25,667 bases of DNA, taken from the IMG/VR virus record IMGVR_UViG_646311923_000009; one strand, written 5' to 3'. The stretch is from a virus (Duplodnaviria; Heunggongvirae; Uroviricota; Caudoviricetes). Each line of letters begins with the position of its first letter. Positions within the stretch are counted from its first letter, which is position 1. Below, piece after piece: positions 6,001 to 9,000 of the stretch. Made by a program: the position numbers.

Positions 6001-9000
6001 ACTTTCCAGAACCATACGAACTGCCCGTTGACGGACCTCGGGGGAAAAACGTGTATTTTTAGTCATCCTGTTTACCTCTTTCTCAGGGAGTTTAGTCTCC
6101 AGGATTCCCGGGGCGGTTCAGCCTCTAAAATTACGGGGCGATTTTCCGGCAACGGACCATCCCCTTCACATAACCCGGCAGTTTCTTTCATTTCATCTGC
6201 TGCAAGCACCTCATTTTTTGTTGGGGTGCTTTTTTTCAATTCAGTAACACAGCACTCCAGTTTTTCAATACGTGATTCAACATCATCTTTTTCTGACCGC
6301 AGTGTTGACGGCGGCATCTTCAGAGAACAAGTAATTCTTCCCGGTAGCTTTCCTTTGTAGGTTATCAACACATCCTGCGCCTCTAAAATTACGGGGCGAT
6401 TTTCCGGCAACGGACCATCCCCTTCACATAACCCGGCAGCAACATCCATGAAAAACTGCTTCGCCTGCTTTTTCGCCTCAGCTTCGTAAAACTCCAGCGT
6501 GGCACCTTCAGTACGGTCAAGACTAATCGCCACATCTGGCAACAACAGTGACGGATACCCACCAATTTCCAGTGCCACAGTAACAGTAATCTTATCCGGG
6601 TAATTATTTATCCCTTTAACAACCAGTTCGTATTTTTTCTTCATCGCTTTACTCTCCCCGCGCCGCCTTACGACGGTCCTCTCTGATTTTGAAATACAGG
6701 TTAGTCAGATATGTCAGCAGCCCAAACAGCAGACTCCCCAGCACGCCTATTGCCGCCCACTGAGACGGAGAGACTTTGTCCAGCAGCTGCAGGAACCAGT
6801 AGCCCGTTCCCACCGCTGACGTGGTGTATGACACACCTGTTGTGATTTTTTCCATCTGGTACATACCCCGTCTCTCGCAATCCGGAAGCTCACAACAACA
6901 GGAGGGGCATCAGCTCACACCGACAGCCCCTGCGCATGGTTACATCATCATTTCGCCGTCAGGCTGAGGCTCACTGCTACCGTCAGGCTGAGACACGACG
7001 CCATCTGAAACAGCACTGTCACCCGCGCCGTCTTCAGGCTCAGGAGCAGCCGGTCCCCCCAGCAGCTCATCCAGAATGGCATCCACTTCAGCATCAAGAC
7101 GCGCCTCAAGATTCTGGCGGAGTTGCTGTTTCAGTGCGCTTCTGACTTCTTCAGAGCGCAGGACGTCCTTCACTGCTTCAGCAGTGACCAGAGATTTTAT
7201 TTCTGACATGGGATTTTCTCGTTGAAAGGTGTTGTTAAGAAAGTTGCTACGAAATGAGAGGCTCTTCGGGTTTTGTTCCGGCTGACTGGCTGGCGCTGAT
7301 TTTTTCCGCCGCCGCGGCATCAATCTTTTTGCGTATATAGTTCCGGATAACCTTATACCCGCCACTTACCAGATATAACGTGCACACCACCGTGCAGAAA
7401 TACAATAAAATAAGCTGTACAAATCTCATTATCCCTCCCGGTTATTGATATGGTGTTGACATCGTTAATACCTGTTGGTTAAAAAAGTGTCCTGCATGTT
7501 TTGCTTTGGATATAACGACATTTGCCGCCGGTTCTGGCTCCTTGTTTTCCCTGCCCCGGCGGCCTTTTTTTCCTGCTTACGGGTTATTCACTTCCACTGT
7601 TATACTTTCAATCAGCACCGGATATGTCGCACCGCTAGTGATATCGGTCACGCGCAATTTGTCTGCCGTAAACGTGCCGACCGGTGACTGTGACAGCATG
7701 AACGGCGTCCCGTCCTTACCATCAATGACCGGCGTCACCTCAATACTGTTGTTACCGGCAAAACGGAAGCCCAGCGTATGCCATTCGTTATCAAATGCGC
7801 CGAATGACCCCAGCTTCGTGTTCTGACCAGCATTTCCCTTGTGGTACATCACATTAAGGTCTGTGGCATCGCTCTGTACGTAAAACGACGCCAGCAGGTT
7901 ATGACCGGCATTACCTTCCAGTGTGACGCCCTGAGGCAGTGAAGAAACCGGCCAGTACAGCGCCAGTGCGTACTGATTAGCTGTCAGTGTGCCATCAACT
8001 TTAAAACGACAACTGATAAGCCCGCCCTTCTCCAGCAGGTCTGCGCCATTACCGGCATCATGCTGCATAAACCACGAGGAACTTCCTGTCTGTTTGGTCC
8101 ACCTCAGCGCCTTACCTCCTGCAGCACCTGCATCATCAACTACCAATGCACGCCCTCCTTCAGCTCCCCATCCCTGCGGATTCAGTAAACCACCTGACTC
8201 TGTTGCACGGTAATAAAGCAGCGTTGTCACTGATTTCCCGTCCGTTGACGGTGTTGATGGTGTGTCCGGTGACGGCTTCTCATCCGGCGGCATCACAACC
8301 TGTTCCCCACCCACCAGTTCAGCCGTCCGTCCTGCATGGAGAAGAATCGCTGAGGCAAGACGGTCAGAAATAATCCCCCTGCGTGCCCATGAGCTGAAAT
8401 GGCTCGCACGGTCTGCTGACGTCCAGTTTGCCGACGTCCGGGAGGCCGCACCGTAATATCCTGATGCCGGAATATCCGGGTCTTCTTCCGGTTTGTTCGT
8501 CGGGACATTTGCTCCGTTCTCATCGGTCATGAACGGCACAAAGTGAATATTCTTTTCCGTTTTGTTTTTGTAACTGCCGTACACCGTCTGGTAAGTGGAT
8601 TCGCTCTTCTGCTTCCAGAAATAAGTTGTGTCTCCACATATCCAGGGAACACCGTCAGCAGAACCACCAGCGCACTGTCCCACCATATCTGCAAGGTCCG
8701 TACGATATTGTTCCACTACTTCTGTAAAACGGGCTGTGTGATTTGCTGGCGTTCCGTCAAAGTCAAATTCCCCCTGCATCCACACCACGGCAAGCAGCAC
8801 ATTTTTCGGGTTCTTTGCCAGCGCGGCTTTTGTACGACCGATGAGATCCTTATACAGCGGCCTGCCCACACCCCAGCGGGTAGAACTCTCTGAGGCACCG
8901 GTCACGTCACTGTATGTTCCATCTGCCCCGGTGGTGAAAGCTGAACCACCACGGCAGCACGGAACCAGAAGAATACCCGCATTCGCCGGTATAAACGGCA

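Follow-up and report, generated by a model that had tools for sequence, protein, structure and literature searches.

How did a gene in a decayed prophage come to carry the same 61 bp twice, with one copy directly abutting the end of an insertion sequence (IS)? We addressed this question in a 25,667-nt stretch of DNA (IMG/VR record IMGVR_UViG_646311923_000009; hereafter, the window), which holds the whole of a degraded lambdoid prophage between ydfJ and rspB. From right to left, the prophage comprises an integrase gene, an exonuclease gene, dicB, cI/cro-like regulators, replication genes, paa, hokD, a DUF968 gene, rusA, Q, a SASA esterase gene, a holin gene and a YdfR-like gene, while the IS, a hypothetical gene truncated at its N-terminus, a transposase fragment, an EspS-like gene and nleG7 lie to the left of the YdfR-like gene. 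Genes for endolysin, Rz, terminase and packaging and all virion genes are missing from the prophage in the window, and the stretch from the IS to ydfJ contains effector-type cargo only.

The two copies of the repeat, at positions 6121-6181 (copy 1) and 6379-6439 (copy 2), are 100% identical 61-mers in direct orientation with a start-to-start distance of 258 bp, and their identity breaks off at once at both edges (0 bp extension). The 61-mer is the longest exact direct repeat of the 25.7-kb window, compared with 13-16 nt in 20 mononucleotide shuffles of the window. Both copies lie within a minus-strand open reading frame (ORF) at 6072-6644 and encode AGLCEGDGPLPENRPVILEA, copy 2 at residues 70-89 and copy 1 at residues 156-175. 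An earlier note on this DNA had reported the identical repeats with their spacing, the duplicated peptide with its reading frame, and a direct fusion of copy 1 to the IS629 terminus; all of these observations are borne out. The copies are separated by a 197-bp segment (6182-6378, minus strand), which encodes QDVLITYKGKL...ADEMKET and belongs to the non-repeated part of the unit discussed below. We refer to the repeat as R, to the intervening segment as M and to the rest of the gene as N. M and copy 2 together span 258 bp (6182-6439, minus strand), corresponding to 86 codons in frame, and this length, which is divisible by 3, equals the start-to-start spacing of the two copies.

The ORF is a chimera of 190 aa, composed of a YdfR/DUF1327 domain, segment M, the duplicated 20-aa peptide and 15 codons derived from the IS end. 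Residues 1-100 match the Pfam family DUF1327/YdfR (PF07041) with E = 9e-46 and 154 bits against a gathering cut-off of 25, and copy 2 sits at its native position inside this domain. The gene directly upstream encodes a class II holin (6649-6864, minus strand; Pfam Phage_holin_2_1, E = 4e-33), which places the gene in the context of a lysis cassette, and the RefSeq annotation of the YdfR-like gene covers only 6309-6644, as 'YdfR family protein, incomplete'. Translation and repeat finding revealed no internal DNA or peptide repeat in the intact forms of the gene, which measure 329 aa in Stx2_95, 211 aa in PhiR5_1 and 176 aa in the Escherichia coli genome FWSEC0007. The long forms of Stx2_95 and PhiR5_1 have N, R and a segment homologous to M in common, followed by unrelated C-terminal sequence. 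Consistent with these intact forms, 117 of the 120 relatives listed carry the peptide once, in agreement with the earlier note's view that the duplication is secondary and foreign to the ordinary form of the gene; an internal repeat native to the YdfR family is thereby ruled out. The other three are proteins from draft short-read assemblies, in which the short form of ydfR shows perfect internal tandem duplications of other segments (279 bp, 165 bp and a complex 246+51 bp). Draft assemblies with such ydfR duplications are GCA_005381005.1, GCA_005381265.1, GCA_005380525.1 and GCA_003113695.1. None of the 5,426 complete E. coli genomes has the junction of the 279-bp duplication, and these unverified draft-assembly duplications may be variants private to their genomes or errors in the assembly of a multicopy gene; we do not count them as support for any reading.

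The element adjoining copy 1 is an IS629-type insertion sequence of the IS3 family (1310 bp, 4811-6120, minus strand). It carries orfA (5740-6066, minus strand; HTH_Tnp_1 match) and orfB (4853-5740, minus strand; rve and HTH_21 matches), and is bounded by 25-nt terminal inverted repeats (IRR, 4811-4835; IRL, 6096-6120) that are 88% complementary, the element running from TG to CA. On identical sequence, RefSeq records an 'IS3 family transposase, programmed frameshift' and an AL1L pseudoknot. The element differs from the copies in related genomes at 66-75 of 1310 positions (~5%), and published IS629 subtypes are 4-5% apart (PMC3271280); judged against both, the label IS629 seems reasonable at the level of an isoform.

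The IRL end of the element meets copy 1 without microhomology, copy 1 starting at the base right after the last base of the IS (6120). The flanks of the IS are unrelated to each other, with ...AACCT on the left and GCCTCT... on the right (CCT/IS/GCC), and there is no target-site duplication, which IS629 normally makes with a length of 3-4 bp (PMC3271280). A join at the exact terminal base, together with the missing target-site duplication, is in keeping with an IS marking the end point of a deletion, and the join carries what appears to be the signature of a transposase-made joint bounding that deletion. Such a joint could be formed through recombination of two IS copies or through an IS-adjacent deletion, and deletions next to IS629, with lengths between a few nucleotides and over 40 kb, are documented (PMC9943667). 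The missing target-site duplication is expected for a deletion-bounding IS or for an IS x IS recombinant and is no argument against the identity of the IS. On the far side of the element, the hypothetical gene without its N-terminus (4620-4810, minus strand) forms the left end point of the deletion.

A single-copy allele is present in the same prophage of the O103:H2 genome FWSEC0007, in which positions 9001-18260 of the prophage stretch (L004) match window positions 6180-15439 at 99.98% identity. In this allele, the 61-mer occurs once, within the 176-aa ORF. Copy 1 has no counterpart at its position, the alignment with the window starting at 6180, while segment M is collinear with and 100% identical to L004 9003-9199, and copy 2 corresponds to the sole copy of the ancestral and intact alleles. 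To the left of the gene, FWSEC0007 contains a small plus-strand ORF, genes for lysozyme, Rz and PerC, nested IS629 copies and terminase genes, all of which are missing in the window, its IS also marking the loss of the endolysin, Rz and packaging genes. The truncated hypothetical gene at 4620-4810 is 60 bp longer in FWSEC0007 and runs up to a different, oppositely oriented IS629, so that the IS junctions of the window are specific to its own lineage.

A comparison of the two alleles locates the rearrangement precisely. On the plus strand, FWSEC0007 reads ...AATTCAAGAAT AG TTTCTTTCATTTC...(M)...CATCCTGC GCCTCTAAAA...(R)...CCCGGC AG CAACATCC..., and the window reads IS-end GCCTCTAAAA...(R)...CCCGGC AG TTTCTTTCATTTC...(M)...CATCCTGC GCCTCTAAAA...(R)...CCCGGC AG CAACATCC.... 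Relative to FWSEC0007, the order in the window is therefore IS, R (61 bp), M (197 bp), R (61 bp) and N. The sole novel junction that does not involve the IS lies at 6181/6182, where the end of R meets the start of M. There, ...CCCGGC(AG)TTTCTTTC... stands against the ancestral ...AGAAT(AG)TTTCTTTC... and ...CCCGGC(AG)CAACATCC..., and the k-mer diagnostic of this junction is CACATAACCCGGCAGTTTCTTTCATTTC. Direct comparison of window 6170-6190 with L004 8990-9010 places the overlap at the dinucleotide AG (6180-6181), which is common to the end of R (...CCGGCAG) and to the bases preceding M in the ancestral allele (...AGAATAG). The two parents hence share 2 bp of microhomology, which taken alone is weak evidence.

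From this anatomy, the 61-bp repeat is probably the leftover of a 258-bp head-to-tail duplication in the YdfR-like gene, the first copy of which was mostly removed by IS629. The ancestral gene would have had the order X-M-R-N on the plus strand, where X is the sequence to the left of M, and slippage or illegitimate recombination over the 2-bp AG microhomology would have duplicated M and R to give X-M-R-M-R-N. The transposase would then have joined an IS629 end at a point within the left unit that left its last 61 bp in place. The join could have come about through simple insertion with subsequent IS x IS recombination or, alternatively, through an IS-adjacent deletion from a copy already at 4811. 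Everything between the IS and the join, that is, the rest of the left unit, X, and the endolysin, Rz and packaging genes, would have been lost, leaving IS-R-M-R-N. Copy 1 (minus strand) would accordingly represent the surviving right-hand end of the left 258-bp unit, and M with copy 2 the complete right-hand unit. The length of 61 bp has no significance of its own and is set by where the IS end joined.

In line with a tandem duplication, the copies are direct and identical, their spacing equals the unit, the intervening DNA is collinear with the single-copy allele, and a single junction links the end of one unit to the start of the next; of the two units, the right one is complete and the left one keeps 61 of 258 bp, the remainder being replaced by the IS. 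The earlier note had argued that the structure is not a simple tandem duplication, given that the sequences after the two copies differ. This argument is faulty. When the unit is longer than the visible repeat, the sequences after the two copies must differ, and a head-to-tail duplication of M and R places M after the first R and the downstream gene after the second.

The duplication-first model needs at least two events. We infer the former existence of the full 258-bp duplication and, as no intermediate allele was found, the order of events. A synthetic M-R-M query against 5,426 complete E. coli genomes retrieved no full M-R-M-R without the IS, only two-piece single-copy matches or matches of the window type. 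Likewise, a search of a large protein collection returned no protein with the full M+R duplication among the matches listed, and the exact 34-mer across the R/M junction had 0 matches in each of the metagenome, viral and GTDB contig collections. The intermediate of the duplication-first model is unobserved, and so are the intermediates of every rival.

The rearranged structure is inherited. Six complete genomes (2011C-4251, SJ7, 2000-3039, 99E2750, UTAK-2 and UTAK-4) contain the exact IS/R/M structure at 100% identity, and a seventh carrier, the O45:H2 genome FWSEC0003, contains a variant form; all seven are complete E. coli genomes under separate assembly accessions. SJ7, FWSEC0003 and 2011C-4251 are documented O45:H2 Shiga-toxin-producing E. 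coli that cluster with O103:H2 (PMC7285328), and the 100% identical single-copy allele is found in several O103:H2 genomes and in two records labelled O121 and O103. Its presence in seven genomes, among them all three documented O45:H2 genomes, dates the structure to before their divergence, and the word 'recent' in the earlier note needs qualifying accordingly.

The same seven genomes bear on the reading of the repeat as an assembly artefact or as a natural internal repeat of the protein family, which is extremely unlikely and effectively refuted. Draft short-read assemblies do show perfect internal ydfR duplications, as described above, of which the one junction tested (279 bp) is absent from complete genomes. 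The seven independent complete genomes, however, are identical in structure, the 61-bp repeat is shorter than a sequencing read, and intact homologues contain the peptide once. The structure is thus no product of assembly collapse or expansion, and related intact genes do not carry the same repeat naturally.

Could the structure instead have arisen in one step, by templated repair? In such a process, a 3' end would anneal via the CT/AG microhomology where R ends, either 258 bp downstream or on a sister copy, ~60 nt would be copied, and the product would be joined to the IS end, so that a full tandem duplication would never have existed. This course of events is compatible with the 2 bp of microhomology found exactly at the R/M join and with a full-duplication intermediate being found in none of the collections searched, and the IS-excision enhancer (IEE) has been linked to IS-adjacent deletions and, in vitro, promotes joining through microhomology (PMC9943667). 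The join between the IS and R, however, lacks microhomology and lies at the exact terminal base of the IS, resembling transposase strand transfer rather than end joining, and templated insertions by IEE are not reported in the text consulted. We consider one-step templated repair unlikely, and its more specific form, in which a PrimPol-type IEE would use the 2-bp microhomology to repair a break at the IS629 end, a little more doubtful still. If true, a one-step templated 61-bp copy would be a natural footprint of synthesis-dependent microhomology-mediated end joining in E. coli.

The earlier note had also suggested recombination between paralogous prophage copies. Here, an IS629 at the M/R boundary of another prophage's ydfR would have been imported by illegitimate recombination joining the end of that R to M of the present gene. 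Enterohaemorrhagic E. coli (EHEC) genomes do hold many ydfR paralogues and many IS629 copies, and several lineages have an IS629 within ydfR or close to it. There is no indication of a paralogous prophage as the source, however: the DNA on either side of the IS is collinear with the same prophage in FWSEC0007, and copy 1 is identical to the local copy, whereas most of the ydfR copies sampled from other genomes show 1-4 differences in 61 nt. Moreover, a synthetic IS-R-N query, representing an unduplicated gene with IS629 at this site, was matched in one piece by no complete E. coli genome down to 87% identity, and no record covered at least 80% of a synthetic query for the reciprocal M/IS junction, which would indicate an inversion or translocation rather than a deletion. 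An exchange of this kind would, in addition, rearrange the chromosomal DNA lying between the two prophages, and we regard it as improbable. We give even less credence to an aberrant transposition, in which IS629 at an earlier M/R insertion would have mobilized 60 bp of flanking DNA via a surrogate end (unit 4811-6180, from TG to CA), moving the IS and R by 197 bp, with the donor copy later excised precisely. The IS with its 60 bp does open with TG and close with CA, and R holds a 7-mer of the IS terminal repeat (CGGGGCG, 6134-6140). On the other hand, this route requires three events, including the precise excision, the donor-type allele was not found, and the likeness to an IS end is weak, a 7-mer being expected by chance in roughly one case in ten by our own estimate. 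The likeness between R and the IS terminal repeat was also considered as a targeting signal and was dropped, only the 7-mer being in common.

Duplication followed by an IS629-bounded deletion remains the preferred reading. In the variant carrier, FWSEC0003, the IS adjoins CTCTAAAA, so that copy 1 measures 59 bp. Of the 21 mismatches between FWSEC0003 and the window in 9.3 kb, 19 fall in the IS, all at IS positions 14-535, while IS positions 566-1310 are identical; all 19 differing positions carry the common-subtype base seen in FWSEC0007 and in PV16-126. On the simplest reading, a second IS629, of the common subtype and in the same orientation, would have inserted 2 bp to the right of the first, and recombination between the two would have produced a hybrid IS, which accounts for the 2-bp shift as well as for the mosaic. 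In PV16-126 (O103:H2), the same prophage has suffered an independent deletion that is likewise bounded by IS629 but has different end points, showing that IS629-bounded deletions recur at this locus. This genome was also considered as a direct precursor of the window and was ruled out, as both of its IS junctions are unlike those of the window. The preferred reading is also favoured by a second small tandem duplication, 36 bp long and in frame, for which the esterase gene of the same prophage is polymorphic and which is present in 2011C-4251 and FWSEC0003 and single in the window.

We regard the feature as an ordinary scar of rearrangement, located in a defective prophage of O45:H2 Shiga-toxin E. 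coli, and as a new instance of well-known processes. Its biological weight is small, the scar lying inside a gene of unknown function in a prophage already devoid of endolysin, Rz, packaging and virion genes; with these genes lacking and the ORF ending in IS-derived codons, we expect the structure to have no function. The locus has two practical uses. It may be read as a compact record of stepwise IS629-driven decay, from a duplication to an IS-bounded deletion and, in FWSEC0003, to a second IS629 2 bp away and a hybrid IS. The IS/R/M junction is a clean lineage marker, found in 3 of 3 documented O45:H2 genomes examined and in four further complete genomes, and absent in the O103:H2 relatives examined. 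For annotation, the rearrangement accounts for the 'incomplete' gene call, and the duplicated peptide should not be taken as a domain repeat.

Viewed against known systems, the gene conforms to the YdfR/DUF1327 proteins of lambdoid lysis cassettes (short forms of ~114 aa, long forms of 176-329 aa), with its N-terminal 100 residues matching PF07041 and its position right after a class II holin gene, except that its C-terminus is rearranged into a duplicated peptide and an IS-derived tail, and the genes usually found after it, for endolysin and Rz, have been deleted. An IS target-site duplication is likewise a direct repeat physically tied to an IS end, and a long one was ruled out as an explanation: the target-site duplications of IS629 measure 3-4 bp and lie on both sides of the element (PMC3271280), whereas here the repeat measures 61 bp, both copies lie on the same (IRL) side, and the flanks are unrelated. 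With microhomology-mediated tandem duplications, the locus has in common direct identical copies spaced by one unit, an end-to-start junction with 2 bp of microhomology and an in-frame length, but the left unit is reduced to 61 of its 258 bp, and the complete duplication is seen in no genome. Descriptions of this particular scar were not found in the IS629 and IEE literature consulted (PMC3271280, PMC9943667). These papers describe IS629-associated deletions and small structural polymorphisms in EHEC prophages, which the locus closely resembles in having an IS without target-site duplication at the edge of a multi-kb deletion in a lambdoid prophage, and in having relatives with independent deletions. 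The locus differs from them in that the end point of the deletion probably fell inside a pre-existing short tandem duplication, leaving a 61-bp direct repeat beside the IS.

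The O45:H2 strain FWSEC0003 carries, at the locus where the window has its IS629-type element (4811-6120), an IS629 chimera (positions 4722-6031 of locus L005, NZ_CP031916.1) that combines two subtypes. Specifically, the common subtype, the one seen in the O103:H2 strains FWSEC0007 and PV16-126, occupies IS positions 14-535, while IS positions 566-1310 show no difference from the window element. In addition, the junction between the IS and copy 1, the 61-bp repeat abutting the IS end in the window (6121-6181), is displaced by 2 bp, so that copy 1 of FWSEC0003 is 59 bp long. Together, the subtype chimera and the displaced junction suggest insertion of a second IS629 at a distance of 2 bp, followed by recombination between the two elements. 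In the window, copy 1 contains the motifs CGGGGCG and TTTTCC (6134-6147), 13-21 bp from the IS end, both of which it shares with the terminal inverted repeats of IS629; they could represent a weak inverted-repeat-like target, but chance would also account for them.

Perfect internal tandem duplications are present in short-form ydfR genes of three draft assemblies: 279 bp in GCA_005381005.1 (L009, 3574-4130), a complex 246+51 bp in GCA_005380525.1 (L011, 4031-4482) and 165 bp in GCA_003113695.1 (L012, 1371-1700), all starting near codon 13. The 279-bp junction was not found in any complete E. coli genome, and the draft duplications may therefore reflect misassembly of a gene present in several copies. 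Separately, the SASA esterase gene (window 7577-9514, minus strand) of 2011C-4251 and FWSEC0003 contains a perfect 36-bp (12-codon) tandem duplication; the segment (window about 9322-9357) occurs just once in the window and in the O103:H2 genomes.

The prophage remnant carries virulence-type cargo (window 1-4800 and 14100-14900), including a frameshifted nleG7, the adhesin gene paa and an EspS-like ORF of 296 aa (window 3130-4020) with zero Pfam matches.

In PV16-126, the same prophage has lost its late region through an independent deletion bounded by an IS629 (L006, NZ_AP038987.1, 5771-7080). The deletion begins within the EspS-like gene and ends 213 bp left of the segment that separates the two 61-bp copies in the window (6182-6378; IS end at L006 7080, segment start at 7294-7296), and another IS629 interrupts the antiterminator gene Q. 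The less degraded prophage of FWSEC0007 contains four IS629 copies or fragments (L004, NZ_CP031908.1, 59-6194), one nested within another, and its terminase large subunit is already truncated.
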